Positions 9,855 through 29,022 of a DNA stretch of 32,000 nucleotides are shown piece after piece (position 1 is the stretch's first letter; each line of letters opens with the position of its first letter). Below the pieces are notes generated by a model, which saw only the letters and a program-made list of their open reading frames with translations, was not told where the DNA came from and ran no database searches. The position numbers and the translations under genes were made by a program. The stretch covers positions 150,001 through 182,000 of the forward strand of contig OY970322.1 in the NCBI GenBank assembly GCA_963716945.1, read 5' to 3'. Source of the DNA: Candidatus Saccharimonadota bacterium. GTDB lineage: Bacteria > Patescibacteriota > Saccharimonadia > Saccharimonadales > UBA4665.

Positions 9855-10532
9855 CTATTCGTTATTAGTCGGGCTGAGGAACGTAATCGTATATTTTGAC
9901 GGGTCAAAACCGACCTGCCTGATCCAGTTAAGCGCATCATTTTGGCCTTGGGTGCTGCTCGCCGTGATAACGATTACGAGCTTAGGTGCCGGACTGGAAT
10001 AATCGATTGTGTAATTAACCTGGAATTCGTTGCCGCCCCCCGAAAACGGTAATAATTGCACCAGGCCGTCGTTCTGAATTGCGTTATAACGAGCCTGGTT
10101 TGCCTCAAGCGCCTTTTGCTGGTCGGCCGGCAAGCTGCCCTCATTGATGGCCTGCGCCTGGAAGCTAAAGGTCTTATCCGGTAAACGAGCGCCCTTGGTA
10201 TCGCTAATATTACTCAGATGCACGCTATAAGTTTCCCCTTCCTGCAATTGCTTATTGAACGAAACCGTAATAACCGAACCGCTGACTGACGACGCCGCTG
10301 AAAGGTTTTGAGGGTACAGCGTTACCGACACGCTTTTAGACAAGGGCTTGCTGAAGTTAATTTTGAAAAACGGCGAGATAGTACCGACGGAGTTTACGGA
10401 GGGGTCGGTTCCGGTAATTCTAAAACTTACGGCCCGGTGTACCGAAAAAGCAATCCACATAACAACTATCAGCAACAGAAAAAGCAAAAATAAACGTACC
10501 AGTTTGACTAACCGCAACTCGTTTTGTTCCAT
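9855..10532 (-). CDS. Bitopic membrane protein with Ig-like (SbsA/Big_5-like) ectodomain; last gene of the T4SS-like operon
   Basis: 225-aa ORF with a single N-terminal TM (LFLLFLLLIVVMWIAFSV). This is followed by ITGTDPS...FKINFSKPL...GETYSVHLSNISDTKG, a pattern typical of bacterial Ig-like domains. It lies 13 nt downstream of the hydrolase gene. Its function is unknown. Confidence 0.6.
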   Translation of the reverse strand: MEQNELRLVKLVRLFLLFLLLIVVMWIAFSVHRAVSFRITGTDPSVNSVGTISPFFKINFSKPLSKSVSVTLYPQNLSAASSVSGSVITVSFNKQLQEGETYSVHLSNISDTKGARLPDKTFSFQAQAINEGSLPADQQKALEANQARYNAIQNDGLVQLLPFSGGGNEFQVNYTIDYSSPAPKLVIVITASSTQGQNDALNWIRQVGFDPSKYTITFLSPTNNE

Positions 10533-10545
10533 ATAATCCAGCCCC

Positions 10546-13125
10546 CTAGTCTAGCGACACGTAACCGGTTATGCCGTTACTATAATAACCGCTGCCTGTC
10601 TCGGTTGAAACTTTTGACTTGCCGGGATAGTTGGCCGGATCGGCGCCGGCGTCCTGGTCACCTCCTATATAGGTAGTCGTGGTGCCGGACACGGATACCA
10701 GGATATTGGTATGGCCGCCACCATAGACGGCTATATCTCCCGGCTGAGGCGTATAACCGTCCCCGTTGGTATGCCAGTGCATACCTTGCTGGCCGGCTTG
10801 CGCGTCGGTTTGCAGGGTCGGTACATACGATATCCGCCAGCTTGGCGACTGCAACGGACTGCCGGCCTGGTTATAAACCCAGCTGACGAAATCGGCGCAC
10901 CAAAGCTGGTTCTGGTTTTCGCTATATTTAGAAAAACTGTCAGCCGAATTTGCCCGGAAGCCGGGGGTCATTTGTCCGGAGTTCCATAAGGCCAGTTCCT
11001 GCTGGGCAATAGTAACTACCTGCTGCTGGATAGCCGACCCGCTGGCGCAGCCGGAGGTACTGGCCGGACTAATTGGGGTCGAAGGCCCCGGCGTCGACGC
11101 CGGCTGGCTGTTGTAGTAGTCATAGTACTTAAGGACTGCCGTTACATACCAGCTGGCATGGTTGTACGAAAATATAAAGCTGCTCCAAGTTGACTCCGGC
11201 TTGTCTTTGGTAGCGCCGTCGCTTTGGGCGTACTTAGCGGCTGCGTCGGCCGATGTGACCAGGTCGTTAATCTTCGAGATGTCGTAACCTAGGCCGGTAA
11301 ACGTGCTTGGCAGGAATTGGAAGGGCCCTTCGGCGCCGGAACTCGAACTGGCCCAGCCGGAATTTGGATCGGGCTGCCCTTTGACGAATCTCGCCCAGGC
11401 CGCCGGCAAGCTGCTCGTATTGGGGTCCGTTTCGCTGCCGCCTAGACCGTGCTCCTCTGAGAATAGGGCCGCCACCAGTGCCGGCGCGACGTTATGGTTA
11501 TTAGCGCCTTGGGTAAAGGCGCCATTATACGGTTCGGGGATGAAGCTGGGCAGCGTACCGGCCGGTACATTTTCGTTATTGCTTGAGCAGCAGCTGGTCC
11601 CCGCGGATGCGGCACCCGACTGGGAGTCGGAACTGCCCTGTACCGCACTGGCCAGGTCCGCGCTGCTGTTTTGAATGTCGGACTTGATTTGCGATGACGA
11701 GTCATCACCGTTAATGTAGACGCCGATTATATAGTCTTTGCCGTTGATCTTAAAGTCGCCGACATTGCCAGCTACGGTAGATGTGCCCGCCCACTTGTTA
11801 TATGCGTCGTTAACGCTGTAGTAATTGTCGTTCTGGGAGGCATACTGCAAGGCGTTCTGAGCGGTTCCGTAGTCGCCGCCGGAAGTACTCAATATATGGT
11901 TCATGGCATCGGCTTCATCGCCAATAGTACTTTTGTTGACGCCGTCATTAGCCGGCGAGTAATAGCCTTTGACGTCAGTGTGGGTGTAGCCGTAGGACTG
12001 GGCTTTTTGGGTAAATGCGTCCACGCCGCCCATCGCTTGCATGAGCACGTTCGCGCCGGTATTGCTTGAAATCTCAAATGTCAGCTGCATGGCATTCCTA
12101 AGGGTTGTAGTGTCGCCGGCTTTCAAGTCTTTTGGATTACCCGTAGAGTAAACCAGGCTGGGATCAACCCGGACTGTTTTGTCCAACGAAATACCGCTCC
12201 TCAAAAGCGTATCGACTATAATCAGCTTCATTGTTGATGCCGGCGTGCTGGGCGGCTGGTCAGACTGATAGCTGGCGATTGTATTGCCGCCTTGCTCTTC
12301 AATGATTGCCGATTGCAGGTTATATTTGGAAACTATCTGGGAAATGTCCAAGTTCCCGCTAACTGCCGGGGCCGGCGTAGCGGTCGATGTGCTGCCGGGG
12401 CAGCAACTGGGTTCATTGGCGGTACCCGCTGCGCTGGTGTCGGTAGCGGAGGCAGTGGGGTCGCTGGCCAGGCTGCCCGTATAAGGTTCTACTTTGGCGT
12501 TGGTAGCCGAAAACGTGTTTTTGGTGCCGTCCCCGGACCAGTCATAAACGTCGACGTGATGGCCGATGATCGCCCCGCCGGTATCGGCCGCCAGGAACGC
12601 TCCGTGCCAGCCGACGGCATTTGGCCAAACGGTTACCAGAGACCCGTAAGGTATGACGTGAGGGTCGACCGCAATTTCGTAACGCGGCAAGCCATGACTG
12701 TTATCAGGACCTTGCAAACTGAGGCCGGTAGACGTAACCCCGCCGCCCTCCAGCGCGCTCCAGGGCGGCCCGTAGGTCGTAGCCAGGAAGCCGCTGCCGC
12801 CGCCGAACGAACCGCCATGGGCGGCCGATTTAGCCTTGTCGATCTCTGCTTGGGTGAAGCCTGTTCCGGCCACGCCGCCAAGCGATTCACCGTTCTTTGG
12901 AGTACTGGAAGCCGTTGCTATAGGTGTAGATGTGCCGGTGCCGGTTGTCGTGGTATCGGTACTGGTCGACCCCGGCGACGAACACGGTTCATAAAAACAT
13001 GTCCCGGCGTCACCGCCCTGCTGAGCGCAGTCGAAGTCATTGGCCGTAAAAGCCGCCGCCTGCTCTGACACTAATAAAACTACCAGGCAAATCGGCACAA
13101 ATAATTTTAGGAGCAAACTTTTCAT
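10546..13125 (-). CDS. Secreted multi-module peptidoglycan hydrolase (3D domain + SxxK serine hydrolase + SLT lytic transglycosylase + CHAP)
   Basis: 859-aa ORF with a signal peptide (LVSEQAAA/F). aa 114-196 look like a 3D/MltA-like domain (IAVDPHVIPYGS...LAADTGGAIIGHHVDVYDW). aa 262-475 carry S297-T-M-K and S353-S-N motifs, as in penicillin-binding or beta-lactamase-fold proteins. aa 540-665 look like SLT (LFSEEHG, GAEGPFQFLPSTF, SYNHASWY). aa 700-859 look like CHAP (LWC743ADFVSWV, GGGH805TNIL). Confidence 0.85.
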   Translation of the reverse strand: MKSLLLKLFVPICLVVLLVSEQAAAFTANDFDCAQQGGDAGTCFYEPCSSPGSTSTDTTTTGTGTSTPIATASSTPKNGESLGGVAGTGFTQAEIDKAKSAAHGGSFGGGSGFLATTYGPPWSALEGGGVTSTGLSLQGPDNSHGLPRYEIAVDPHVIPYGSLVTVWPNAVGWHGAFLAADTGGAIIGHHVDVYDWSGDGTKNTFSATNAKVEPYTGSLASDPTASATDTSAAGTANEPSCCPGSTSTATPAPAVSGNLDISQIVSKYNLQSAIIEEQGGNTIASYQSDQPPSTPASTMKLIIVDTLLRSGISLDKTVRVDPSLVYSTGNPKDLKAGDTTTLRNAMQLTFEISSNTGANVLMQAMGGVDAFTQKAQSYGYTHTDVKGYYSPANDGVNKSTIGDEADAMNHILSTSGGDYGTAQNALQYASQNDNYYSVNDAYNKWAGTSTVAGNVGDFKINGKDYIIGVYINGDDSSSQIKSDIQNSSADLASAVQGSSDSQSGAASAGTSCCSSNNENVPAGTLPSFIPEPYNGAFTQGANNHNVAPALVAALFSEEHGLGGSETDPNTSSLPAAWARFVKGQPDPNSGWASSSSGAEGPFQFLPSTFTGLGYDISKINDLVTSADAAAKYAQSDGATKDKPESTWSSFIFSYNHASWYVTAVLKYYDYYNSQPASTPGPSTPISPASTSGCASGSAIQQQVVTIAQQELALWNSGQMTPGFRANSADSFSKYSENQNQLWCADFVSWVYNQAGSPLQSPSWRISYVPTLQTDAQAGQQGMHWHTNGDGYTPQPGDIAVYGGGHTNILVSVSGTTTTYIGGDQDAGADPANYPGKSKVSTETGSGYYSNGITGYVSLD

Positions 13126-13144
13126 TATCGTAAACCGGCAATCA

Positions 13145-16100
13145 TTAAGGCGCGGCCCTTATGTGTTGATGGGTGCAGGTATCGTTGAAAGTCGTAAACT
13201 TACTATTGTTCAGGACGGGATAAGTCGGGTGGCACTCTATTTGTCCGAACGAACCGCCGGTAGTAGACAGTAAAGCCGCCGCGTCGTTAACGAACTTTTC
13301 ATCTGATGCGGCTTCAGCTCCGGTAGCGCCGTTTTGAATCGAAAAGTCCGCTGACTGGCCGCAAGTATGGCCGGAGTAGGCATCGCAACCCTCTGACGAG
13401 TGGTTGCTGCAAATTGCCGATATGCCCAGTGTCCAGCCGTCGGTTTGGACCAAGCCTAGAATCAAGCCTAGAAGATGAGGAGTAAGAGCTCCCACTCCAC
13501 AGTTCCCGCCTATGGGTATGCCTTTGGCGGTGTTTTGGATATCTTGGCAGTCAGCCGGCCCGCTGCCGCCTGCGGCCGATCCGCAGACGATCTTCCCGCT
13601 GCTTATGAAAGGCAGTAGTTGTTGGGCCAAAGACTGGGAGCTGCCCGTGGGGAGTGAGCCGGCGCTTGCCGGTGGCGTCGTGTCGGCTACTGTCTCGGTA
13701 GCGCTTACGGTCTGCTCCTGGTTAAGCTGGTCCATAGTGTTCTTGTAGCCTTGTGCCACCCGCCAGCGGAAGACCAGGTCCGCCCAGCCGTGCCCGGTCG
13801 GCGACAAGCCGTCAACCGGCCCGGCATTGTCTATATTGGCGGTTCCCAGGTTTCTTGGCGAGCACAAGCCTTTGTCCGGGTTTACGTCGCCGTTGTCATC
13901 ACGAACGATATAGTATTCGCCGTCCGGCGCTTTTTGGGTCAACATGTCGCCGATAGACACGCTACCGTCGAAACAGGCGCCATATCTGGCGGCGATGGCG
14001 TTCTCTTGGCCGCTGGCATCAAGCGCCTCCTGGTTCTCTAGCGGGCCATAGCTCGGATCGGTGGCTATAAGCTGCTTTTCATAGGGGGTGAAGCCGAACT
14101 GGACGTTGCCGCAATAAGTATTGGCGCTGGTAACGGTCGCGGCCGCGAAAGCGCTGTGCGACATCAGCGGGCTGAGTATCGAGCCGATTGAACGGATGGG
14201 ATTGAGCAAAGCGCTGCCAATTTTTAGCGGCACAGTCCAAGCCGAGCTGCTGAAATAGCCACTGGACGCCATAGCCACGCGGCTGATTAACGAATCGGGG
14301 TTGTTGACCGAGGCATAGCGTTCCACGGCGCTCTGCTGGCTCTCGTTGTAGGTAAGCTGGCCTATGTTGCTAGCATTGTCGGCCGCTAAATTCTGGTCGG
14401 TCAACGGCGCCCCATAGAATTCTTGCTGCTCAATCTGGTTGGCATATAAATTAGTGCCGCAATCAAGCGTATTATCATAAGGCTCGCCGGTGGCCAGGCT
14501 ATTATGCGAAGCGCCGATTTTGCTAGCCACAATCGCCTTAGCTATCAAGGTCGCGCCGCCTATGAGCGCCACTTGCTTGCCCGTCTGGACCCCGAAGTCC
14601 TTGAGCTTGGAGCCGCCGCTGACGATTTTGCCGAGTGCCCTGCTGGCAAGAGACGGGACGGCTTCGTCGGCCGCGTTTTCGGCAGCCACCTCGCCGCCGG
14701 CCATGATGCCGCCGCCCTCGCCGCCTGTCAGGTAGCTGACTACGGCGCCAATGGCAATATTAGCCCCTCCCAAAGCTGCCCCTACCCATAAGTTAGTTAA
14801 TGCCGGACAGGCGCTGCCAAGGCTGGTGACCACGCTGTTAAGCGGTTCGGGTAACCCCGTCGCCAAAGAGTACTGCCCGGTTGCCGAAGCCTCGGAGGCC
14901 GGGAAAGAACTTGTGTCGACCGGGATGCCGCTGGCCCGTTCTTCAGGAAAAGACGTCGTAATGTCAGCCAGCTTATAGTCCAAAGCGCCATCAACTTCGC
15001 CGTTGGCGCTGTTGCCGTCTTTCAGCTGCGAAGCAGCCGACTGCATCCATAACGCGCTGCGTTCCATTTGGGTATTCTGGGTATTTATGGTCTGGCCGGC
15101 ATCAGGAGACGTAAGCGACCCGTCATAGACCAGGCACATCGGTACGGCTATCTTATAAAACGGGTTGATAAAGCCGACGATATCACTCAACAGGCCGGTC
15201 AAGCCCTGGGCCGAGTCCTTTATTCCATTAAGCACCGACTGTACCGAATCGGGCAACGAGTTAGGGTCGGGCAATATATTATTCTTAACTTGTCCCGCAT
15301 CGTTAACCTCGGCGGTTTCCGCGGCCTGGGCTTTTTGGGCTATTTCATCAACCGTTCCATTGGGGCTTCCGCTGACGCTGGTGGTGCTAGTGGTGTTGCC
15401 GCTGTTGGTTATGCTGGTCGCCGAACCCTCCTCAGCCGTATTATAGGCATCCTGCTCGATATTAACTTCGTCTTGGGTTTCATCTTTGCCGGCATAACGG
15501 CCGGCCACCCAAGCGACCAAACCGATATTAAGCTCCGAACGTATCTGGCTGGCGACGCGGGCCCTGGTAATCGGCCCGATACTATTGGCCTTAAGGGCGT
15601 CAATCAGGTCCGGGGCGAAATTACGGGAGAAGCTAAAGTCCTTGGTCACGAATTTGTAACCCGGTATAAGACTATTTTTAAGTGAATTCTGAAGCGACTT
15701 GGTCTCAAGGCCGGTCGTCAGGCTGGCCGTTTCGTTATTAATTGTGGCGCTTTTGATATAAGTCCTGCCTAATTTGGTAGTGCCCTCGTTGAATTTTAAA
15801 ATATTATCATTTTGAAAGTTAGATATTACCTTTCCGGGCCGGTAGTCGTCGAAACTGGACCACAAGTCTTTGGCCTGACCCGTGACGGCAGTGGCCTTGG
15901 CCTGGATTTTATCAAGCAGCTGTCCGGCCAGGCTTCTGTCGGTGGCTGAGGCCGCGGCATCCTCGCTCTCGGCTGCCAGCGCGTCGATACCCAGCTTTTC
16001 GTTGGTTATAGATTCGGTATCCTGGGTCATGGAGGCCGTGTTGCGGGCAAACTGATAATCAGCAATATGCTCCGTGAAATCAACGACCTTATACCCTCCG

Positions 16101-16579
16101 ATGATAACCGCCACCAAAATAATCATGCCGATTACGATGACGTTGCTGCCGATAGCGATACCGACCAGCCACTTGTTTTTGAAGGCCCGGGCCTTGACGT
16201 TTTGGGCCTTGGCGCGGGCCCGGCGCAATGGCGCCAGCCGTCCCTCGTCATCATCGGGGTTGTAGAGGTTGTCGTCATCATCCTTTTCCCTGGGATTTCT
16301 GCTGCCGGCCGATTGCTCGGAATCACGCAGGTCGCCCGGGCTGGCCGAGCGGCCGCTGCCCCTGCTCCTGCCGCTGTCAGACCGGCCGCCTTCGCCGGCC
16401 TCATCGGCGCCGTCAGCCCCGTCGCCTTCAGGGTTGTATAATCCGCCCTCCTCGGCGTCGCGCAAATCCTCGCGGGGCACACCGCTACTGTCGCCGCGTT
16501 CGTGGCCGACGCCCAAGTCAGGCCGAATATTCGGACGGTTGGCATCTCCTTGCGGAAGTTGGTCTGGTGGCTCTTCCAT
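13145..16579 (-). CDS. Large membrane-anchored protein with acidic repeat-containing N-terminal tail and C-terminal LAS-type zinc-peptidase-like domain
   Basis: 1144-aa ORF. aa 1-136 are charged and disordered, with a duplicated DLRD...LYNP unit. A TM lies at about aa 137-163 (WLVGIAIGSNVIVIGMIILVAVIIGG). A long S/T/G/A-rich region follows. The C-terminus has SGH1071TCGQSAD1078 (H-x6-D) and CTH1137QH1139 (H-x-H), as in M15 and DD-peptidase/hedgehog-fold metallopeptidases. The CDS itself is solid; the domain call is tentative. Confidence 0.6.
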   Translation of the reverse strand: MEEPPDQLPQGDANRPNIRPDLGVGHERGDSSGVPREDLRDAEEGGLYNPEGDGADGADEAGEGGRSDSGRSRGSGRSASPGDLRDSEQSAGSRNPREKDDDDNLYNPDDDEGRLAPLRRARAKAQNVKARAFKNKWLVGIAIGSNVIVIGMIILVAVIIGGYKVVDFTEHIADYQFARNTASMTQDTESITNEKLGIDALAAESEDAAASATDRSLAGQLLDKIQAKATAVTGQAKDLWSSFDDYRPGKVISNFQNDNILKFNEGTTKLGRTYIKSATINNETASLTTGLETKSLQNSLKNSLIPGYKFVTKDFSFSRNFAPDLIDALKANSIGPITRARVASQIRSELNIGLVAWVAGRYAGKDETQDEVNIEQDAYNTAEEGSATSITNSGNTTSTTSVSGSPNGTVDEIAQKAQAAETAEVNDAGQVKNNILPDPNSLPDSVQSVLNGIKDSAQGLTGLLSDIVGFINPFYKIAVPMCLVYDGSLTSPDAGQTINTQNTQMERSALWMQSAASQLKDGNSANGEVDGALDYKLADITTSFPEERASGIPVDTSSFPASEASATGQYSLATGLPEPLNSVVTSLGSACPALTNLWVGAALGGANIAIGAVVSYLTGGEGGGIMAGGEVAAENAADEAVPSLASRALGKIVSGGSKLKDFGVQTGKQVALIGGATLIAKAIVASKIGASHNSLATGEPYDNTLDCGTNLYANQIEQQEFYGAPLTDQNLAADNASNIGQLTYNESQQSAVERYASVNNPDSLISRVAMASSGYFSSSAWTVPLKIGSALLNPIRSIGSILSPLMSHSAFAAATVTSANTYCGNVQFGFTPYEKQLIATDPSYGPLENQEALDASGQENAIAARYGACFDGSVSIGDMLTQKAPDGEYYIVRDDNGDVNPDKGLCSPRNLGTANIDNAGPVDGLSPTGHGWADLVFRWRVAQGYKNTMDQLNQEQTVSATETVADTTPPASAGSLPTGSSQSLAQQLLPFISSGKIVCGSAAGGSGPADCQDIQNTAKGIPIGGNCGVGALTPHLLGLILGLVQTDGWTLGISAICSNHSSEGCDAYSGHTCGQSADFSIQNGATGAEAASDEKFVNDAAALLSTTGGSFGQIECHPTYPVLNNSKFTTFNDTCTHQHIRAAP

Positions 16580-16615
16580 GTCTGTTTTTCACCGGCTAAG
16601 TCTTACTTATGCTTA

Positions 16616-20815: not shown

Positions 20816-22576
20816 CTAGCCTATCGAACGTGCCCGCTGGAACCGCCGGCCTATGGCGTTGAAGTCCCGCTTGCCCAGCCTGTGTCCCGGCGTGCCTGAG
20901 GTAACGGTTTGCAGGATGTCCACGACTTCGTTCTTAACGAAGGCCGGCAAATGTAAGGCGTTCAAGGCGTTCCAATCAAGACTGTAAATATCGGGCACCT
21001 CATTAACGGTGTCATTACCCTTTTTGTCATGGCCCAGGATTTTTTCGGCAGGCTTCGTAACTACCAGCACCGTGTCGGCGACCCGGCGGCCGATCAGGTC
21101 GTCAATGACCATACGCTGGACGCGGCGGGCCTCCTCGGGGTCTTGGTCAAAGGGGTCGCCGACTTTGACCCCAAAGTCGTCGTGCTTCTGGAACTCATCT
21201 TCCAATTCCCGGGGATGCTTAGATAAGTAACGCTGTTCCATCAGCTGCCAAAGCATCGTGCCCAAGCTGGAGTCTTCTGCGTTTTGCTCAAGGCCGAAAT
21301 CTTTCAGCGCCTCGGTGTATTCGTAAGTCATGCGGCTGGCCATGTCGATCACGGCGTTTTTGCCCAGCTCGGCGACCGTTTGTTGCAGGAGCCGCACGTA
21401 TTTTTCCAGGAACTGCTCGCCCTGCGTTCTGATCCGGTCGGCCACTACCAGCCTGTCCCTATAAATATCGTCAAAATGGAAAATGTCCTCGTAGGACAGG
21501 AGAGCAATAGCCTGCTCATCCGGCAGCCACCGCTCATTGGGGTCGCCTTCCCGGCTGCTATCCGGTCCTTCAATCCAGTCTTCGCGGCCCGTCATCACGA
21601 AACTGGTACTTATCCGGCCGATACTTGAGATAACCGACGGCTGGGGGCCTTTTTCGGGGATTTCGGCCTTTAAATCACTCAGCGATTCGCCCATGTTGTT
21701 GAGGTGCTTCTTCAAGCCGTCGTCTTTGTAAACCCGCTGGTGGGTAGCGTCGCCGGCCGCGTTGTAAGTCTTGACCACGAAGGTCCGCACCGGGTACTTG
21801 TGGCCTTCAGGGCCTTCCATCAACAGAGTGTCTTCAGTCACGCGCTGGAGGTCGCCGTTGACCCTCCAGCTGACACCTGTCAAGCCCAGGCCCAGGCGCT
21901 CCTGGTGTTCGATGACGGTGTCGAAAACCTTCTTGTCGGGATTGGTTAACTTAATGTCGCGTACCTCGCGGCTGGCGCCGCGGCCCGGCCGTTCGCCCGG
22001 CTCCTGCCAACCGAATCCGGTGAACCATTCGAAAGGCGTGAATTCGTCGCTCGGGTGGTCAAGCCAGTCTGCCAGCTCGCCGTCATTGTAGCCGATTATG
22101 TCAGCCGGCTCGCCGTCGGGGCTCGTTACTTTGACGGTCCAGCGTTTTCCGGTGCCGTGGTTGAGAACGATTTTCTTTTTCTCGGCCCGGCCGATGTAGG
22201 GGCCGCCCCTCAAGGTGCTTCTGGCCCGGGGCCGCCACATGCCGGTCGGCTTGGCTTCTTTGGTAGTTACGGCGTAGGCGTCATAATCCGAGAATTCATA
22301 AACCTGGCCATTGCGGTCGCGCAGCCAGAAGCCCCTGAGGTCGGGACGGCCGGCGGCTTCGCCCATTTCCGTTACCTGTTCGGAAATCAGTCTTAGGGGG
22401 TCGAACTCCCTGCGCATCGTTGAAAGAACGATCTCGGTACCTGGCCCGGCCGCGGCGTGCGGCAAAGTGTGCACCTCCGTCGTAGGCGGTAAGTGGGCGG
22501 GTATGATTTCAGTCGTCGGCTCACCTGCCGGAGGCGGTTGTCGTACTAGTTCGGTCGAGGTTTCGGGTGATGCCAT
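20816..22576 (-). CDS. Hypothetical soluble protein (no recognisable domain)
   Basis: 586-aa ORF with no TM segments or signal peptide. It is the dominant frame across the interval. It is preceded by a consensus promoter and embedded in the T4SS-like operon. Confidence 0.6.
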   Translation of the reverse strand: MASPETSTELVRQPPPAGEPTTEIIPAHLPPTTEVHTLPHAAAGPGTEIVLSTMRREFDPLRLISEQVTEMGEAAGRPDLRGFWLRDRNGQVYEFSDYDAYAVTTKEAKPTGMWRPRARSTLRGGPYIGRAEKKKIVLNHGTGKRWTVKVTSPDGEPADIIGYNDGELADWLDHPSDEFTPFEWFTGFGWQEPGERPGRGASREVRDIKLTNPDKKVFDTVIEHQERLGLGLTGVSWRVNGDLQRVTEDTLLMEGPEGHKYPVRTFVVKTYNAAGDATHQRVYKDDGLKKHLNNMGESLSDLKAEIPEKGPQPSVISSIGRISTSFVMTGREDWIEGPDSSREGDPNERWLPDEQAIALLSYEDIFHFDDIYRDRLVVADRIRTQGEQFLEKYVRLLQQTVAELGKNAVIDMASRMTYEYTEALKDFGLEQNAEDSSLGTMLWQLMEQRYLSKHPRELEDEFQKHDDFGVKVGDPFDQDPEEARRVQRMVIDDLIGRRVADTVLVVTKPAEKILGHDKKGNDTVNEVPDIYSLDWNALNALHLPAFVKNEVVDILQTVTSGTPGHRLGKRDFNAIGRRFQRARSIG

Positions 22577-22613
22577 GACGAAAGGTGTTTATTTAAGTTT
22601 TTAATCAATATAG

Positions 22614-22642
22614 ATTATAGCTGATAATTCCAATATTGTCAA
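22614..22642 (-). promoter_or_regulatory. Consensus sigma70-type promoter (TTGACA-N17-TATAAT) upstream of the 586-aa ORF
   Basis: The minus strand reads ggtagTTGACAatattggaattatcagcTATAATctat. The -35 is at 22642-22637 and the -10 at 22619-22614. It lies in a 113-nt AT-rich gap, about 38 nt upstream of the ATG at 22576. Confidence 0.6.
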
Positions 22643-22689
22643 CTACCTAGTTTGATAGGTATGGTACGGAGATTATAAAATGGAGGCAA

Positions 22690-25600
22690 TTACTGATGGT
22701 GGGCGGCGTCTTCTTGGGCTTTCCTGGCTTGTTCGGCCGCGTCCTGCTGTTGTTTGGCTTGCTCTCTCGGGTCGTAGCTTCTCGGTTCCGGCAGCGGGAC
22801 GCCTTCTTTGCGAAGCTCTTCGGCCATGTCGCTCCACTCGGCCTTGGCGCCGGTGTCGTTGTAGCCGTAGGGGCCAGCCTGGTTGACGATAAGGTCTTGC
22901 ATGGTCCGGGCCTCCGCCGTGTAGTTGCCCTGGGCGTCTTTCTCTCTGGCGATAGCCATGTTGGTCAGGCGGGCCGATTGGACGGCTTCGGCCTTGGCGC
23001 CGGTCCAGTCGGATGCCTTGATGCTCATGGCGTTGGACTTGGCAGCAGCCGACTCCGGCCTGTCGAAGACGGAGTAGAAACTGCCCTTCTTGCCGGTGGC
23101 TTTGCCGGTCATGTCGACCATGACGCCATGACCCCACCTGGTCTCAGGCCTTAGACGGGCGCCGGCATCGGAAGCTTTCTTGACGACGCTCTGGGCGTAA
23201 GAGTGGCCGCCGCCTTTGCCCTTGCGCGCGGCGATGGAGTTGCCGATCTCGGCCAGGTCGTTGGTTTCGGCGCGTCCGGCATTAGCTAAGCCGAGCGCAC
23301 CCATTGTCTGAATATCGGCTCGGAAGAGCTCGGGGTTGTTGCTGATATTGGCCAAAGTACCACGGGCGGTGTGGAGGCCGGCTGCCGCCAGCTGCTCCTT
23401 TTCCTTGTCGCTGCTTGCTAGGATCTCAGTAATTTTGTCAATGTCCTTGAGTGACCTAGGAGCTCTTGCAACGCCTGTTTCTTTGTCAATAAAGCCTTCG
23501 TTTATAAGTGCTTGCTGGGTGTCCTGGCTGAAACCACGATACGAACCTGACAATGCACGCCAAGCTTCGTAGTGCATGCCGCCCTTGGACTCGATTTCCT
23601 GCCAGCCCTTGGTGCTGTGGTCGATCATGGCGTCGTCGATCTTGTTCTCTATGCCGGCCGCGAAGCGCTTGAAGCCGGGCGTGCCCTTTTGGCCGAGTTT
23701 GCCGGGCACCATTTCATCGGCATCGAAGGCCCATTCGGCCATTCGGCTGCCGATCCTGCCGATACTCCGGCCCTTATTGCCGAAGCGGCCGAATTCGGGG
23801 TTCCACAAGTAGCCGGCCCGGGCGCGCTGGATACGGCCGGCTGTGTGTTCTTTGCGCTTCTTGCTCAAGAAGCCGTAGCCGCCTTGGGCGCGGCTATTGA
23901 CCAGGTTGGCCATGCCGCTTAAGGCGCCGCCGGCAAACCGGAAAGTCATCGGAATCATTAAATAAGGCGCGAAGTAAGCTATAAAACCGATTATCTGGCT
24001 CAAGATATCGCTGCTCTGGTTGACGGCGATAGCCGAAAATACCCGCCCGGCGGCGATGAAACCGGCGATTAGCGGGAACATCAATAGGGCCTTGCTGAGG
24101 GATTCCCACCAGAGCTTGAAGACCCTCTGGGTATTGGGGTTAGGCAATATGTAGGCGGCCAAACCGATAGGCGCCAGGATGATCAGCATGATAATGGCTA
24201 TCTGCCGCAAAATCAGGGTTGCGAAACCGACCAGTACCGCCAGGGCGGCCATGCCGACAAAAGTCAGTAAACCGAATACGCCCATAGCAACGCCCACGAT
24301 GGTGGGGATTAAGACCGCGCCGCTTTGCGCCAAACTGAGATGGATGCTGGTATTGATGCCGACGAAGGGCTGCTCGATCAGGTATCTTATGCCGAAGCCC
24401 AAGTCATTCGTCAGTGTCACGAAGAAATCCATCAGCTGCCAAGACAAAGCGATGCCGATGGTCGCTATCAACAGCCTCGGCAACACCTTGCGAATCGTAT
24501 AGGCGTCCAATATTTCAAGGCCGAGGGCCTGGGCTATCAAGACTAGCAAAGTAGCCATGGCTATCAGGCCGAGCGCGATGTCGCGGAAGTGCGACCAAGC
24601 CGTTTTATAGGCGTCACATTGGCCGCCCGTGCCGCAAGAACCGTTGCTATCGGCAAATATTTGATTGGGGTCATCCGAATTGCCGTTGGTACCTACGGAA
24701 AGCTGGCTGTTAATTGCGTCGTCAAGGGCGCTGACTATGCCGACCAGGCCTTTGACGATACCGCAGATCAGCCAGTTCAACGGGTTAAGACCGGCATGGC
24801 AACTTAATGACAGGTCCTGGCTGGGGTTGCTGGCCGCGCCGGCCCCGCCGACGGGGCTGCTGCCCGGCGCCTCGTCGCTGGCCAGTTTACCGTCGGCACC
24901 TTTCGGATCGCCTATCTGGATAGGGATGCTGCCACTCTGATAACAGCCCTGCCCGTCGCTGCTAAGTGTCGCGCCGGTAATATTGGATGGGAAACCGGTC
25001 GATAGAGGATTGTCGCTGGAGCTGTTTTTGATAACCAGGGTTCCGTCCGCCGGCCAGCCCGAGGCTCCCGTAATCTGGCTTTGGCAGGTACTGTTGTAGC
25101 TTCTGCCGCTGGTGGCGAGGTAAGGGTCGCTGCCCGGGCTGCTCTGCGTGAAGACTATAGCCGTTTGGTCCGAAGTGCTGATGGTGCCGCTGTCCTGCCA
25201 GGTAAAGTAATAGTTAAAGCCTGCCGGGTCGGAATCGGGACTCAAGGTTATCGGGTCGTCGGTTTCAATACAATTATTATTGCCCCCGCCGGGAATGCTG
25301 AAGAGATGGATGGTGGCCGTCGCCGTGGCGTTCTGATAGTTGGAGCCGTCCGAGTTGGGGAAACCGTTAATGTAGTTCTTGGATGTGCAGCTGTCGCTTG
25401 CGTTCTGGATTTTGAAGTTCAGGTCATTGTCTTCTTTGTTATCGTAGTAGGTATCGCTGCCGACAGTGATGTGGCTGTGGTCGACCCACTGGCCGGTCTG
25501 TTTGGGCTGAGGGTTGTTGATGGTTATGGCGCCGTAGCGCGTCACGCCCAAAAGGCCGCCGCAATCGGCTTCGATAGTCGCCGCCGAAGAGCCGTCTTTG

Positions 25601-25893
25601 TGGTCATCGGTATAGATATATAGTTCCGGACAACCGTTGCCGTCCGGCCCTAGCGAGCCGTTGCCGTTGAAGTAAACGCCGGTGGGATACTTCTTGGTGT
25701 CGACGCCTTTCTTGGTGTAGGTCAGGGTGCTGCTGGTATCGGCCGGGTCGGGGCCGATGACCGCCTGGTTGCCGTCGGTGTAGCGGTACGTGCCGTTTAC
25801 GGCTGCGGTTTTTGCCGGCCAAAAAGAGGACAATAAGACTATTGCCAAAGGCAAGGCCGCCAACCAGAGTTTCTTGTCGCTCATATGTTTCAT
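22690..25893 (-). CDS. VirB6/TrbL-like polytopic channel protein with large N-terminal ectodomain and C-terminal extension
   Basis: 1067-aa ORF. It has a signal peptide (LPLAIVLLSSFWPAKTAA/V) and a ~400-aa Cys-containing secreted region. At least 5 TM helices lie at about aa 437-655 (LIAMATLLVLIAQALG, LLIATIGIALSWQLMDFFV, AIIMLIILAPIGLAAYIL, and others), as in TrbL/VirB6. A ~400-aa hydrophilic C-terminus follows. Confidence 0.7.
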   Translation of the reverse strand: MKHMSDKKLWLAALPLAIVLLSSFWPAKTAAVNGTYRYTDGNQAVIGPDPADTSSTLTYTKKGVDTKKYPTGVYFNGNGSLGPDGNGCPELYIYTDDHKDGSSAATIEADCGGLLGVTRYGAITINNPQPKQTGQWVDHSHITVGSDTYYDNKEDNDLNFKIQNASDSCTSKNYINGFPNSDGSNYQNATATATIHLFSIPGGGNNNCIETDDPITLSPDSDPAGFNYYFTWQDSGTISTSDQTAIVFTQSSPGSDPYLATSGRSYNSTCQSQITGASGWPADGTLVIKNSSSDNPLSTGFPSNITGATLSSDGQGCYQSGSIPIQIGDPKGADGKLASDEAPGSSPVGGAGAASNPSQDLSLSCHAGLNPLNWLICGIVKGLVGIVSALDDAINSQLSVGTNGNSDDPNQIFADSNGSCGTGGQCDAYKTAWSHFRDIALGLIAMATLLVLIAQALGLEILDAYTIRKVLPRLLIATIGIALSWQLMDFFVTLTNDLGFGIRYLIEQPFVGINTSIHLSLAQSGAVLIPTIVGVAMGVFGLLTFVGMAALAVLVGFATLILRQIAIIMLIILAPIGLAAYILPNPNTQRVFKLWWESLSKALLMFPLIAGFIAAGRVFSAIAVNQSSDILSQIIGFIAYFAPYLMIPMTFRFAGGALSGMANLVNSRAQGGYGFLSKKRKEHTAGRIQRARAGYLWNPEFGRFGNKGRSIGRIGSRMAEWAFDADEMVPGKLGQKGTPGFKRFAAGIENKIDDAMIDHSTKGWQEIESKGGMHYEAWRALSGSYRGFSQDTQQALINEGFIDKETGVARAPRSLKDIDKITEILASSDKEKEQLAAAGLHTARGTLANISNNPELFRADIQTMGALGLANAGRAETNDLAEIGNSIAARKGKGGGHSYAQSVVKKASDAGARLRPETRWGHGVMVDMTGKATGKKGSFYSVFDRPESAAAKSNAMSIKASDWTGAKAEAVQSARLTNMAIAREKDAQGNYTAEARTMQDLIVNQAGPYGYNDTGAKAEWSDMAEELRKEGVPLPEPRSYDPREQAKQQQDAAEQARKAQEDAAHHQ

Positions 25894-26043
25894 AATCTAG
25901 CAGGCAGGAGCTCTATGGGTTTTTGTTTGCCACCGGGAACGTTTTTGTAGTCAGGCATAATGCGCTTGAAGTTACATTGTTCTAAATATAGCACATAAAA
26001 AGGATTAGCGTTATCAAGGGGCGGCTTCTTCTCTAGCCGACAC

Positions 26044-26072
26044 TTGTCAATGGGTAGCTTAAGCTCTATAGT
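26044..26072 (+). promoter_or_regulatory. Putative promoter of the pilin-like gene array
   Basis: TTGTCA (26044-26049)-N17-TATAGT (26067-26072) sits in the divergent intergenic region. The -10 ends only 9 nt before the ATG at 26082. Confidence 0.4.
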
Positions 26073-26081
26073 TATATAAAA

Positions 26082-26882
26082 ATGAACATTACAACACACA
26101 AAGCCAAAAAAATAATCAGGAAAGTCAGCGGTCCGCTGGCCGGTTTCCTGGCTGCCGTGTTCATCTTGGCGCCATCGGTAGCCCTGGCCGCATCGCAGGT
26201 GTATGGCATAGCCTGCGCCAACAGTGACGTCAAGGTCAGCACCCACTCCGCGGCCTGTGCCGATAAGTCGGCAACCCTCAGGCTGTATGAGATCGGCAAC
26301 AAAAACCCTGAGAAACCCTACCCCTCCGGCTACGGCATAACGGTAGTAACGGTTGATTGCGGCAGCAGCAGTCCGACTACCCCCCTGCTGAACGGCCCCG
26401 TCAAGTTTAGTTGCAAGAAATCATCAATCAAGCCGACGCTCAAAGGCGCCACGATCATCCAGCATGCCGGCTCGGTCAGTCCCAGCGGCAGCCTTGGCGG
26501 CCAAGTCACCTGTGACCCGACGACCGATGCTACCTGCCCGGTTTGCCAGAGCAGCAATCCGCCGTCCGGCTGTGTCGACTGCAGCAACGGCACCTGTTCG
26601 GACCCGGCGGCCAACCCGGACGTTTCCTGCAGCGATAACGGCTGTGATTTGATATCCAAGTATCTTGACCCGTTTATTAACCTGTTCTCGGTGACCTTCG
26701 GTTTTATAGCCGTAGCCTCTATTATTATGGGGGGTATTCAATACGCGTCCTCGACCGGCGATCCGCAAAAGGTGACGGCGGCCAAACAACGTATTACCAA
26801 TACCCTGATCGCCTTAGTGGCTTATTTCTTCCTTTACGGCTTCCTGCAGTTCTTGATACCGGGAGGCGCATTTAACAGATGA
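26082..26882 (+). CDS. T4SS pilin-like protein 1 (VirB2/TrbC-like C-terminal module fused to a Cys-rich ectodomain)
   Basis: 266-aa ORF with a signal peptide (ILAPSVALA/AS). A ~190-aa region carries many Cys (...TCDPTTDATCPVCQSSNPPSGCVDCSNGTCSDPAANPDVSCSDNGCD). The C-terminus is helix-loop-helix: FGFIAVASIIMGGIQYASSTGDPQKVTAAKQRITNTLIALVAYFFLYGF. Confidence 0.7.
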   Translation: MNITTHKAKKIIRKVSGPLAGFLAAVFILAPSVALAASQVYGIACANSDVKVSTHSAACADKSATLRLYEIGNKNPEKPYPSGYGITVVTVDCGSSSPTTPLLNGPVKFSCKKSSIKPTLKGATIIQHAGSVSPSGSLGGQVTCDPTTDATCPVCQSSNPPSGCVDCSNGTCSDPAANPDVSCSDNGCDLISKYLDPFINLFSVTFGFIAVASIIMGGIQYASSTGDPQKVTAAKQRITNTLIALVAYFFLYGFLQFLIPGGAFNR

Positions 26883-26889
26883 GAAACCA

Positions 26890-27276
26890 ATGCTAAATAC
26901 ACTGTTATCAATCGTGGCAACGGATGCTTGCGACAAGTCCGGCGACTTCTTCGGCCTGCTGCCCTGGTACCATTACTTGCCGCCGGGTGATTTCAGCGGC
27001 TGCGACCTGGTTAACTTCAACTTCCTGCCAAGCTCTAGCGTAGCCAGCGACGTGCCGCTGGTGATGTTGGCGGTTATCGATGATTTGTTGCGTATAGCCG
27101 GCATCGTGGCGATTGCTTTCGTCATCGTCGGGTCGGTAAGATACATAACCAGCCAGGGCAATCCGGAGCAGACGGCCCAGGCCCAGTCAACTATTATTAA
27201 CGCTTTGATCGGCACGGCCATAGCTATAGCGGCCGCGACCTTTGTCGGCTTCGTCGGCAGCCAGTTGGGAGGTTAG
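26890..27276 (+). CDS. T4SS pilin-like protein 2
   Basis: 128-aa ORF with the C-terminal module AGIVAIAFVIVGSVRYITSQGNPEQTAQAQSTIINALIGTAIAIAAATFV. The N-terminal part has 2 Cys and LLPWYHYLPP. Confidence 0.7.
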   Translation: MLNTLLSIVATDACDKSGDFFGLLPWYHYLPPGDFSGCDLVNFNFLPSSSVASDVPLVMLAVIDDLLRIAGIVAIAFVIVGSVRYITSQGNPEQTAQAQSTIINALIGTAIAIAAATFVGFVGSQLGG

Positions 27277-27277
27277 A

Positions 27278-27592
27278 ATGGGAATTATTTTTCGGATCTT
27301 GGCAGAATCGGTAAGCGCCGGTAACCTGCCGGGAGCACCTACGCCGGCGGATCCCAACCCCGTCAGCCTGACCAGCGTGGCCGCTTTGCAAACCATCCTG
27401 GGCGTAGTCTTCGGTATAATCGGGGCCCTGGCGCTCCTGATCATAACGGTTTCCGGACTTCGCTATATAACTTCGGCCGGCGATCCGGAAAAGACGACCA
27501 GGGCCAGAAACGGTATCATCTATGCTCTCATTGGCCTGGTTTTGGCCATATCGGCCGAGGCGATAGTATCATTCGGAGTTAACCGGCTATGA
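27278..27592 (+). CDS. T4SS pilin-like protein 3
   Basis: I place the start at ATG 27278 (104 aa), preceded by GGGAGG and lying just after the upstream stop. The track's start at 27242 is less likely. The module is FGIIGALALLIITVSGLRYITSAGDPEKTTRARNGIIYALIGLVLAISAEAIV. Confidence 0.7.
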   Translation: MGIIFRILAESVSAGNLPGAPTPADPNPVSLTSVAALQTILGVVFGIIGALALLIITVSGLRYITSAGDPEKTTRARNGIIYALIGLVLAISAEAIVSFGVNRL

Positions 27593-28032
27593 TCAGGCGA
27601 TTATCTCTGGCTGTAGCCCTGCTGGTCTTATGCTTGTTTGCGGCGCCGCGGCCGGCGGCGGCTTATGACATATTCGGCGGTGTTAATTGTTCGGCCAACG
27701 GCAACTCCAGCTCCGCCTCCAATTCGGCGGTCTGCCAGGGCCAGCCGGCAACCGATCCTACAACCGGCAAGGCGGCCGACCCCATAGGCGGCGCCAACGG
27801 CCTACTGGCCAAGATCACCAATATCGTGGCCTATGCCGGCGGCGCCGCGGCCATTATCCTGGTAATTGTCAGTGCTTTGCGCTTCGTGACCTCGGGCAGC
27901 GATGTCAGCACCAGCTCGCGTACCGATACCGATGTCGAGAATGCCAGGCGCAGCCTTAGCAGCGCCCTGATCGGTTTGGCCATTATCGTTCTGGCCCGCA
28001 CATTAATATTATTTGTACTGAAAAAGGTGTGA
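27589..28032 (+). CDS. T4SS pilin-like protein 4 (loop-insertion variant)
   Basis: 147-aa ORF with a signal peptide (FAAPRPAAA/YD). The module is AAAIILVIVSALRFVTSGSDVSTSSRTDTDVENARRSLSSALIGLAIIVLART, with an ~8-aa longer inter-helix loop. It overlaps the upstream gene by ATGA. Confidence 0.65.
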   Translation: MIRRLSLAVALLVLCLFAAPRPAAAYDIFGGVNCSANGNSSSASNSAVCQGQPATDPTTGKAADPIGGANGLLAKITNIVAYAGGAAAIILVIVSALRFVTSGSDVSTSSRTDTDVENARRSLSSALIGLAIIVLARTLILFVLKKV

Positions 28033-28042
28033 AGGAGAGACT

Positions 28043-28483
28043 ATGAAACGGATTATCTTAAACATAACGGCGCTTTTGCTGCTCGCCATAGTGCCGGCCG
28101 CGGCGCTGACAGGCGCGGCTTATGCGGCGGGGTGCGGTACGCCTTCGACGCCCAAAACCCAGGTGCTGAATGGCATCGGCGAAACCGGCAGCAACTGCGA
28201 TGACAGCGGTGTCGCTAACGCTATCTCGGCTGGCGTTAATATCTTGAGTCTGGTGGTCGGCGTGGCCGCTGTCATGATGGTCATACTCAGCGGGTTCAAA
28301 TACATAACGTCCGGCGGCGAGGCCAGCAAGGTTTCCAACGCCAAGAACAGCCTGGTTTACGCCTTAATCGGTTTGTTCATCGCGGCTCTGGCGCAGCTGC
28401 TGGTGCACTTCGTCCTCGCGCAGTCGACTGTCGCCGCCTGCCCGCCCGGCAGCAAGGACGCCGCCTGCCAGCCGGCCCACTAG
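28043..28483 (+). CDS. T4SS pilin-like protein 5
   Basis: 146-aa ORF with a signal peptide (LTGAAYA/AG). The module is VGVAAVMMVILSGFKYITSGGEASKVSNAKNSLVYALIGLFIAALAQLLVHFVL. GGAGAG lies upstream of the ATG. Confidence 0.7.
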   Translation: MKRIILNITALLLLAIVPAAALTGAAYAAGCGTPSTPKTQVLNGIGETGSNCDDSGVANAISAGVNILSLVVGVAAVMMVILSGFKYITSGGEASKVSNAKNSLVYALIGLFIAALAQLLVHFVLAQSTVAACPPGSKDAACQPAH

Positions 28484-28498
28484 GGAGCTTCAGGTTAC

Positions 28499-28527
28499 TT
28501 GATTCCGCTAAAGCCTTGTAGTATAAG
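28499..28527 (+). promoter_or_regulatory. Possible internal promoter ahead of pilin-like gene 6
   Basis: TTGATT (28499-28504)-N17-TATAAG (28522-28527) lies in the only sizeable gap (74 nt) of the pilin array. Confidence 0.35.
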
Positions 28528-28557
28528 TTAAGTAGACTTAAAGAAAGGTTTAGAGAA

Positions 28558-29022
28558 ATGATTCAAAAGATCAAAACTTATATGTACATGGCGGCCGGAA
28601 CCATAATGCTGGCTTTGCCGCTGCTGGTATCAACTGCCGCCGCGTCCGCGGTAGCCGACTGTAACCAAGTCAGCTCCGGCATCGCCAACGGCGTCAACCA
28701 GGCGACAGGCACCAGCAGCAGCAACCCCAACGCCGTCGACTGTTCCTCGAGCAGCGTTAACGGCAGCACGATCGGTACCGCCGCTAAGGGACTGGTGAAC
28801 GTCTTCTCTATCATCGTCGGTGTCGTGGCCGTGGTCATGATCATCTACGGCGGCTTTCGCTACATTACTTCCGGCGGCGACAGCGGCCGGGTCGGCAACG
28901 CCAAGAACAGCCTGATTTACGCCATCGTCGGATTGGTTATCGTAGCCCTGGCGCAGCTGATTGTGCACTTTGTCCTGGGCCAGACTAACAGTATCCAGAC
29001 TAACGTCACCGCTCCGCAATAA
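28558..29022 (+). CDS. T4SS pilin-like protein 6
   Basis: 154-aa ORF with a signal peptide (VSTAAASA/VA). The module is VGVVAVVMIIYGGFRYITSGGDSGRVGNAKNSLIYAIVGLVIVALAQLIVHFVL. This is its closest match to gene 5, including long identical DNA runs. Confidence 0.7.
   Translation: MIQKIKTYMYMAAGTIMLALPLLVSTAAASAVADCNQVSSGIANGVNQATGTSSSNPNAVDCSSSSVNGSTIGTAAKGLVNVFSIIVGVVAVVMIIYGGFRYITSGGDSGRVGNAKNSLIYAIVGLVIVALAQLIVHFVLGQTNSIQTNVTAPQ

Follow-up and report, generated by a model that had tools for sequence, protein, structure and literature searches.

An origin-adjacent type IV secretion locus in a Saccharimonadia bacterium

The locus and its closest described relatives

In Southlakia epibionticum ML1, an 'apparent T4SS' (type IV secretion system) encoded by SEML1_0006-0019 was reported to be essential for epibiotic growth by transposon sequencing (Wang et al. 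2023, PMC10633639). The same study placed the system nearest to Gram-positive conjugative systems, found its pilins to be essential, and recognised neither a coupling protein nor a relaxase. Here, we analyzed 32,000 nucleotides (nt) of contig OY970322.1 (assembly GCA_963716945.1, positions 150,001 to 182,000) from a Candidatus Saccharimonadota bacterium; this whole stretch is called the window, and its first letter is position 1. Between 9855 and 29022 it carries eight minus-strand and six plus-strand genes, a locus that is almost certainly the core chromosomal T4SS of this member of the Saccharimonadia (Saccharibacteria, Patescibacteria or candidate phyla radiation).

According to the published gene table of S. 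epibionticum (PMC10633639), recF (0003) is followed on the opposite strand by an exported Ig/PEGA protein (0005), a hydrolase with two lysozyme domains and a Cys-protease domain (0006), a protein of 1113 amino acids (aa; 0007), VirB4 (0008), its 293-aa partner (0009), PrgI (0010), the extra genes 0011 and 0012 (NTF2-like, non-essential) and a TrbL/VirB6-like protein of 1088 aa (0013). The pilin genes 0014-0019 diverge from these and are followed by Hsp20 (0020) and ComF (0021). The window repeats this order and orientation near gene for gene, from recF and the Ig-like gene to the six pilins, Hsp20 and ComF. Three differences were found. The interval between prgI and virB6 encodes two proteins in S. 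epibionticum, one of 999 aa and one that is NTF2-like (VirB8-fold) and non-essential, whereas the window has an unrelated 586-aa protein there. An extra 250-aa gene (0004) beside recF in S. epibionticum is without a counterpart in the window. The wall hydrolase is built from phage-tail lysozyme and glucosaminidase in S. epibionticum, and from 3D, DD-peptidase-like, SLT and CHAP modules here.

A wider survey (Quinonero-Coronel et al. 2025, PMC12102498), in its accessible text, traces the VirB4 of Patescibacteria to MPF-FATA ancestry, with TrsD as the commonest companion. It describes PrgI-type VirB3, VirB6 and VirB2-like pilin arrays of 2-11 genes, which are abundant in Saccharimonadia, and finds relaxases near-absent, VirD4-like genes mostly distant from virB4, and dnaA, dnaN, rnpA and rpmH enriched near virB4. 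The window shares the VirB4 type, the adjacent TrsD homologue, the PrgI-type VirB3, VirB6, the pilin array, the lack of a relaxase and the neighbouring dnaA, dnaN, rnpA and rpmH genes, and shows no difference in kind. This reading of the locus is therefore already in the literature, in which the gene content, the lack of a relaxase and coupling protein, the pilin array and the origin position were published between 2020 and 2025. Because the cluster has been described and is essential in a cultivated relative, we regard the window copy as an ordinary member of a known system. No T4SS other than the Saccharibacterial one has been reported as essential to the survival of its own carrier bacterium. 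An entire class of host-dependent ultrasmall bacteria has conserved this system, and a 2025 review counted the Patescibacteria T4SSs among the 'most exciting newcomers' of the superfamily.

The minus-strand block spans 9855-25893, with gaps of 13, 19, 36, 36, 59, 46 and 113 nt between its genes, and the plus-strand pilin block diverges from it at 26082-29022. A preceding model-made reading of the letters (the initial annotation) was correct in its coordinates, gaps, gene count and the motifs GAGKS and IVDEAW, as checked against open reading frames (ORFs) and translations. The features of the locus are as follows.

9855-10532, minus: bitopic Ig-like protein, 225 aa; Pfam Big_5 24.7 bits (cutoff 23.6), transmembrane helix at residues 11-29
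10546-13125, minus: secreted multi-module murein hydrolase, 859 aa; 3D, Beta-lactamase2 and CHAP modules, signal-like N-terminus
13145-16579, minus: post-virB4 membrane protein, 1144 aa; counterpart of SEML1_0007
16616-18568, minus: VirB4 ATPase of the monoderm CD1110 type, 650 aa; Walker A GAGKS, Walker B IVDEAW
18605-19549, minus: TrsD/TraC-like protein, 314 aa; NCBIfam TrsD, E 7e-7
19609-20769, minus: PrgI/VirB3-like membrane protein, 386 aa; Pfam PrgI 45.8 bits (cutoff 27) over residues 8-91
20816-22576, minus: soluble protein in the virB6-prgI slot, 586 aa; no transmembrane helix, first ~55 residues disordered
22690-25893, minus: extended VirB6/TrbL-like polytopic protein, 1067 aa; PF19590 on a 1052-aa form
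25894-26081: intergenic region from which virB6 and the pilin array diverge; sigma-70-like site (26044-26072) directed towards the pilins
26082-26882, plus: pilin 1, 266 aa, Cys-rich, VirB2-like; PF18895 28.9 bits, NF045849 38.5 bits (cutoff 40)
26890-27276, plus: pilin 2, 128 aa; PF18895 40.3 bits
27242-27592, plus: pilin 3; PF18895 52.2 bits
27589-28032, plus: pilin 4, 147 aa; PF18895 29.9 bits
28043-28483, plus: pilin 5, 146 aa; PF18895 42.8 bits, TrbC/VirB2 E 1.7e-4
28558-29022, plus: pilin 6, 154 aa, paralogue of pilin 5; PF18895 59.5 bits

On the origin side, recF ends at 9852, leaving 2 nt to the stop codon of the Ig-like gene, and the genes assigned from their translations are:

5995-9852, plus: origin-side context, consisting of dnaA (5995-7392), dnaN (7670-8761) and recF (8797-9852)

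Eight matches to the DnaA box with at most one mismatch were found, six of which cluster in intergenic sequence on either side of dnaA (5826-5949 and 7460-7610), one of these six being perfect. As the clusters occupy both intergenic regions that flank dnaA, assigning oriC here is reasonable, in agreement with the initial annotation, which had put the locus 2 nt from recF and beside oriC.

To compare gene order, we called ORFs in 83 related loci and labelled them with hidden Markov models (HMMs) seeded from the window proteins. The usual order was Hsp20, pilins, VirB6, slot, PrgI, TrsD, VirB4, a membrane protein of ~1000 aa, hydrolase, (Ig-like), recF, dnaN and dnaA. In 64 of the 83 loci, recF was found in convergent orientation to virB4, a median of 6 kb away, the exceptions being mostly truncated contigs; the synteny proposed as a check on the first reading is thus widespread. 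The TrsD-like and PrgI genes lay next to virB4 in the same order in 78-79 of 83 loci, and the pilins numbered 3-9 per locus, most often 6. When one genome per species was scanned, at least 568 species genomes proved to have a VirB4 relative. The best 80 VirB4 relatives were all from Saccharibacteria and 83-92% identical to the window protein, and every named homologue of the window proteins came from Candidatus Saccharimonadales/Saccharibacteria.

Further, the parts of the locus differ strongly in conservation. The median identity to the window protein across the related loci (tblastn) was 87% for VirB4, 73% for the TrsD-like protein, 71% for DnaN, 69% for DnaA, 57% for RecF, 47% for PrgI, 32% for VirB6 and 32-47% for the pilins, while the hydrolases, the Ig-like protein and the 586-aa protein mostly fell below detection. 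The value for VirB4 is somewhat inflated because the loci were picked by VirB4 similarity; even so, VirB4 exceeds the DnaA and DnaN of these genomes in conservation, and the contrast is real. The engine (VirB4 and TrsD) is extremely conserved and the surface parts diverge fast. The cytoplasmic engine of the locus is under very strong constraint.

HMM scans with general libraries found no type IV coupling protein (T4CP), relaxase or recombinase either in the 32-kb window or in the preceding 10 kb, which we recovered from another assembly of the same organism; relaxase families gave no match in these scans, and oriT was not searched for. VirB4 was the sole T4SS-type ATPase in the window, the other P-loop proteins being DnaA and RecF. 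The upstream 10 kb encode glycosyltransferases, a methyltransferase and a Wzm/Wzt exporter, and the G+C content does not differ between the locus and its flanks. No att-like flanking repeats were detected. The sole repeats that bracket the locus (2428/30671 and 2790/31033, ~77% identity over 62-65 nt) are not attachment sites, since they lie inside two paralogous membrane-protein genes. The initial annotation had reported that nothing in the 32 kb resembled a T4CP, relaxase, recombinase or terminal repeats, and had named a relaxase, T4CP, integrase and direct repeats just outside as the finding that would make the locus an ordinary mobile element; the former was borne out, and no relaxase, T4CP or integrase appeared within the upstream 10 kb.

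These data bear on whether the locus could be an integrated conjugative element, intact or decayed, with its relaxase, coupling protein and integrase encoded beyond the window. Its VirB4 does belong to the conjugative family conju_CD1110, and a few Patescibacteria carry relaxases according to the accessible text of the survey (PMC12102498). The closest plasmid relatives include a true conjugative cluster, found on a linear plasmid of Embleya sp. (NZ_CP108778.1). This conjugative cousin encodes a VirB6-sized protein, PrgI, VirB4, a T4CP, a replication-relaxation protein and an NlpC/P60 protein, the T4CP and replication-relaxation genes following virB4. However, the place directly after virB4, held by the T4CP in Embleya, is occupied in the window by the membrane hydrolase. 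The position beside recF-dnaN-dnaA is also the same in 64 of 83 species-level genomes, VirB4 at 83-92% identity across species stands above DnaA and DnaN of the same loci, the G+C content is uniform, and neither flanking repeats nor a mobility gene occur in the 32 kb and the 10 kb upstream. We therefore rejected the mobile-element explanation, for which the remaining probability is practically negligible. Conjugation as the function of the apparatus is very improbable too; export of relaxase-bound DNA is unlikely because there is neither a coupling ATPase nor a relaxase in view. The view of the initial annotation, a resident chromosomal apparatus of monoderm type and not a conjugative element, agrees with the conserved position, the uniform G+C content, the lack of mobility genes and the CD1110/MPF-FATA VirB4.

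Engine, channel and pilins

The VirB4 protein scored 362 bits against NCBIfam conju_CD1110 (NF045971; cutoff 325) and 94.5 bits against Pfam P-loop_TraG, and also matched Pfam AAA_10 and DUF87. By these profiles, it is of the monoderm CD1110/MPF-FATA (CD1110/TrsE/PrgJ) type, and the ATPase call of the initial annotation was upheld together with both Walker motifs. A separate match of VirB4 to the PADLOC model mad8 (E 3e-24) was put down to generic HerA/VirB4-type resemblance, and a defence reading was rejected as no other defence component was found.

The gene upstream of virB4 had been described as resembling only the VirB4 N-domain, which proved apt. Besides TrsD, its product resembles two VirB4 profiles over their first ~80-230 positions, and PF26593 TraC-like is found in its syntenic homologues. 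The VirB4 ATPase gene covers profile positions 179-733 only. VirB4 is in effect split, because the TrsD-like protein supplies the N-terminal profile positions absent from the ATPase gene. The PrgI-like protein, likewise called as PrgI/VirB3 from the first reading on, is the counterpart of SEML1_0010 and ends in a long Pro/Ala-rich C-terminal tail. As a side observation, a 349-aa 'PrgI family protein' of Embleya sp. (locus L087, 10308-11357) includes a segment with homology to the TrsD-like protein (E 3e-9), so that VirB3-like and VirB4-N-like parts appear to be fused in this conjugative cousin.

The VirB6/TrbL assignment is the weakest of the component calls and holds at the family or profile level only. 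Hydropathy suggests a Cys-rich extracellular N-domain, ~7 transmembrane helices (370-650) and a long helical cytoplasmic C-domain. PF19590 TrbL_3 is precomputed for a 1052-aa form of the protein (100% identical over 99% of the query) and for ~100 homologues, Pfam TrbL is matched by 13 of 37 VirB6-like homologues, and SEML1_0013, its counterpart by position, is annotated TrbL/VirB6-like. The VirB6/TrbL call of the initial annotation thus stands for the 1052-aa form and the homologues, and the direct scan of the window protein was negative.

Six divergent pilin-like genes had been noted, and all six products passed the PF18895 cutoff (26.6) at 28.9-59.5 bits. Several additionally resemble TrbC/VirB2 and NF045849, the Mycoplasma-ICE pilin family. 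In most related loci, as here, the first pilin is the largest. Pilins 5 and 6 share a repeat of 189 nt with 71% identity. A putative promoter facing the pilins was found by a consensus scan at 26044-26072 (TTGTCA-17-TATAGT), with 10 of 12 consensus positions matched; it is a consensus match only. The listed TTG start of pilin 3 (27242) overlaps pilin 2 by 35 nt; the start is probably ATG at 27278, which gives 104 aa and matches the homologues of 92-110 aa.

Taking the components together, a complete monoderm inner-membrane T4SS core is present, comprising VirB4 and its detached N-domain, VirB3, VirB6, pilins and wall hydrolases. With the MPF-FATA systems (pGO1/pIP501 trs/tra, pCF10 prg and CTn2), the locus shares a CD1110-type VirB4, a PrgI/TrsC-type VirB3, TrsD, VirB6 and a downstream wall hydrolase of the SLT+CHAP type, and like them it has no outer-membrane core parts. 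The order VirB3-TrsD-VirB4-membrane protein-hydrolase is reminiscent of trsC-D-E-F-G. Unlike these systems, the locus is without a T4CP or relaxase and has six VirB2-like pilins; it also resides in the chromosome beside the origin and is vertically conserved. A VirB8/TcpC-like protein was not found in the window, and VirB4 is 29-39% identical to its closest relatives in the plasmid collection.

We propose that the VirB4 ATPase, split with the TrsD-like N-domain protein, would dock on PrgI/VirB3 and an extended VirB6 channel in the single membrane, and would power the extraction of VirB2-like pilins from the membrane and the assembly of a pilus or tube.

Operation without a T4CP is known from Helicobacter ComB, Bordetella Ptl and Brucella VirB, as cited in the accessible text of the survey (PMC12102498). 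These systems differ in being diderm and having a VirB7/9/10 core, and sequence kinship with the window is limited to the VirB4, VirB3, VirB6 and VirB2 families. ComB imports DNA; therefore, VirB4-only systems can run inward. This raises the explanation that the locus is an uptake machine, like ComB or the archaeal Ced system, which brings in DNA, RNA or nucleotides of the host. Being a VirB4-only system without a T4CP, as ComB is, the locus would suit such a role. Patescibacteria are without nucleotide synthesis, and as S. epibionticum can dispense with ComEC competence, a different route of import would be required. A 2026 preprint described tubular structures, possibly T4SS pili, at the interface between another Patescibacterium and its host, together with feeding on host RNA. 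The conserved ComF neighbour also fits, but it is non-essential in S. epibionticum (PMC10633639). Further, a weak CedB/CedD match was confined to the generic P-loop region, and the polymorphic outward-facing enzymes described below argue for at least an export or breaching component. Uptake thus seems to us a possible but rather doubtful function.

Envelope enzymes and a variable slot

The Ig-like protein that closes the minus-strand block corresponds by position to SEML1_0005 (PEGA/Ig fold); that it is bitopic and Ig-like, as first described, accords with a Big_5 score above cutoff and one N-terminal transmembrane helix. In the neighbouring murein hydrolase, Pfam 3D (45.8 bits), Beta-lactamase2 (51.1 bits) and CHAP (35.9 bits) are firm, and SLT (E ~1e-3) falls below the cutoff. 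Of the four modules claimed initially, three are therefore established and the fourth is only probable. The 3D module is lytic-transglycosylase-like, and the serine DD-peptidase/beta-lactamase-like module has STMK and SSN motifs. This multi-module enzyme, whose counterpart is SEML1_0006, probably plays the VirB1 role.

The gene that follows virB4 encodes the large membrane protein reported initially, with an ORF as described and a transmembrane helix at 142-160. A disordered acidic/basic N-terminus precedes the helix; the core extends over residues ~141-957, and a Thr/Pro/Ala linker leads to a C-terminal domain (~960-1144). Neither the whole protein nor fragments of it gave a direct match in Pfam or NCBIfam. 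We found 19 word-level homologues, and 76 of 83 syntenic ORFs fall into one family. Conservation within the family ends at about residue 957 and is followed by the linker and a variable tail.

The tail of the window protein (~185 residues, ~13148-13700) has HxxGxxxD at SGHTCGQSAD and HxH at HQH. H92, G95, D99 and H160 are invariant in an alignment of 16 homologous tails, giving the zinc-ligand pattern HxxGxxxD (H-x6-D) ... HxH. There was no Pfam match for the window tail or its tail subgroup, and the best PDB matches of the tail profile were Sonic hedgehog N-domains, at E 0.04-0.07 only. For SEML1_0007, a C-terminal Hedgehog/DD-peptidase fold was assigned by Wang et al. 2023 (PMC10633639). The C-terminal domain of the 1144-aa protein thus resembles a LAS (Hedgehog/DD-peptidase, VanY/M15-type) zinc peptidase. 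An AlphaFold2 model of residues 131-1144, built on the 19-sequence alignment, was unusable (predicted local distance difference test, pLDDT, 44), and a Foldseek search with it came back empty.

We then surveyed the tails across the family by scanning 75 members with Pfam over their last 300 residues, with the following domains found.

VanY: 14 members
Peptidase_M23: 6 members
CHAP: 3 members
GDSL lipase: 3 members
Amidase_2: 2 members
Exo_endo_phos: 2 members
Tyrosine phosphatase: 1 member
GDPD: 1 member
Peptidase_M14: 1 member

GH5 cellulase and BSP peptidase tails were found in a second set of homologues. Among 27 pairs whose cores are at least 50% identical, 13 have tails that show no BLASTP similarity. 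These comparisons suggest that the post-virB4 protein of ~1000 aa combines a conserved core with a swappable C-terminal enzyme domain.

Variability is also seen between virB6 and prgI. This position is vacant in 32 of 62 loci and otherwise holds 1-4 same-strand ORFs of 96-771 aa, as judged by crude ORF calling, so that it forms a variable slot with unrelated occupants. The 586-aa occupant in the window, whole or in fragments, has no match in Pfam or NCBIfam, and 44 relatives are also without a Pfam domain. It had first been taken for an orphan, which is not the case: an exhaustive HMMER search of 1.84 billion cluster representatives yielded 75 remote relatives at E<=1e-3, three of them at E<=1e-30, with conservation concentrated in residues ~340-582. 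An AlphaFold2 model (pLDDT 78.5, predicted template modelling score 0.70) predicts two modules that are rich in beta-strands and have long hairpins, and a helical domain at the C-terminus. Foldseek found no match to this model at E<=1e-3 in PDB or BFVD.

How the enzymes act bears on what the apparatus does. In our proposal, the 1144-aa protein and the murein hydrolase would open peptidoglycan at the contact site, that of the own cell and probably that of the host, and the apparatus would be a conduit or contact structure at the epibiont-host interface, needed for feeding on the host. The diversity of enzyme tails (peptidases, amidases, lipase, teichoic-acid-type phosphodiesterase, glycosidase) is more in line with varied host envelopes than with upkeep of the own wall. 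Export or presentation of proteins, either envelope-breaching or effector, is the direction that we tentatively favour, with uptake as the main alternative.

Monoderm T4SS hydrolases (VirB1-type; PrgK/TraG) normally act on the own wall. This counts for another explanation, namely a pilus for adhesion or contact that translocates nothing, with hydrolases that merely pass it through the wall of the cell that makes it. Six divergent pilins with a large Cys-rich first member would be in keeping with such a pilus, as would the lack of any substrate receptor in view. On the other hand, Saccharibacteria already own two type IV pili for adhesion and motility; the lipase, glycerophosphodiesterase, phosphatase and GH5 tails have no obvious role on own peptidoglycan; and the extended VirB6 with the strongly conserved VirB4 suggests a working channel. 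We consider a pure adhesion pilus to be quite unlikely, and less likely than uptake to account for the locus.

The favoured explanation as a whole, a core T4SS that is not mobile and serves as an epibiont-host conduit or contact structure, is highly probable in our judgement. It starts from the gene content, orthology, conserved position and lack of mobility genes in view that were observed here. Essentiality is taken from the S. epibionticum literature, and we infer assembly, pilus formation, cargo and direction. Several points weigh against this explanation. A 2024 perspective calls the function in any Patescibacterium 'completely unknown', with effector delivery or nucleotide uptake as guesses (PMC11665869). 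VirD4-like genes are often far from virB4 in Patescibacteria, with a non-essential one in S. epibionticum, according to the accessible text of the survey (PMC12102498). A distant T4CP or relaxase may thus exist elsewhere in the 1.1-Mb genome, of which the window and the 10 kb upstream were covered. In direct hmmscan searches of Pfam and NCBIfam, the VirB6-like window protein gave no match, whole or in fragments, and a profile of 37 VirB6 homologues against PDB sequences reached TrwI/VirB6 only at a non-significant E of 1.7. The VirB8-like protein mentioned above as missing from the window also belongs here. Pilus formation is suggested by pilin homology alone, and the polymorphic hydrolase could act solely on the own wall.

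Part of what we describe was not found reported, namely the swappable enzyme domain after virB4, the variable slot whose 586-aa occupant has a confident but unmatched fold, and a relaxase-less architecture in Bacillota. A literature search did not find a polymorphic hydrolase of the Saccharibacteria T4SS, which is weak evidence of its being unpublished, and the accessible text of the survey of Quinonero-Coronel et al. (PMC12102498) mentions neither a polymorphic post-virB4 module nor a variable slot. These side observations are modest and possibly already known to groups working on this system. The swappable heads and the variable slot offer concrete candidates for host-specificity determinants.

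The Bacillota case is a cluster on an 898-kb replicon of Pontibacillus sp. ALD_SL1 (NZ_CP062975.1; locus L086, 7483-17036). It encodes two homologues of the window pilins (best E 2e-14), a protein of 780 aa in the place of VirB6, another small protein, a TrsD relative (E 1e-31) and a VirB4 that is 37% identical, and the gene after virB4 specifies a protein of 1051 aa from the 'DD-metalloendopeptidase family'. Within 12 kb, the annotation shows neither a T4CP nor a relaxase, a soft absence given that the PLSDB annotation is incomplete. The cluster differs from the window in belonging to a free-living member of the Bacillota, in lying beside flagellar genes and not at the origin, and in having two pilins only. 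Since the Pontibacillus replicon has such a cluster, the pilin-bearing relaxase-less architecture is not confined to Patescibacteria.

We speculated, as an extension that is possible but unlikely, that the post-virB4 protein may be a T4SS-borne 'evolved' effector whose conserved core links it to the apparatus and whose exchangeable enzyme head is matched to the envelope chemistry of its host, that it may set the host range together with the slot protein, and that relaxase-less versions occur in Bacillota. If this were true, the Saccharibacterial T4SS would be a device for breaching the host envelope that is built like a polymorphic-toxin system, with related versions in free-living Bacillota (Pontibacillus).

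Neighbouring genes

The window is coding-dense, with 27 genes counted and a 28th, rpmH, masked by a spurious ORF. The features outside the T4SS locus are as follows.

Before the T4SS: two glycosyltransferases, a polytopic membrane protein, jag, yidC, rnpA (with rpmH nearby), dnaA, dnaN and recF
29090-30416: pilin-side context, Hsp20 (minus) and a ComF-type phosphoribosyltransferase (plus); Pfam HSP20 and Pribosyltran, synteny

On the pilin side, Hsp20 and ComF, the counterparts of SEML1_0020-0021, are neighbours that recur in related loci; beyond them lies a second polytopic membrane protein. This protein (490 aa, 30446-31918) and its paralogue before the origin (507 aa, 2203-3726) bracket the origin-plus-T4SS region at a distance of 28,243 nt. 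Neither has a Pfam match, and both have a GT-C-like topology.

The ORF at 5554-6003 (minus, 149 aa) is almost certainly spurious. The true gene there is rpmH (45 aa, ~5558-5695, minus), at the position given by the gene call on a matching Logan contig.

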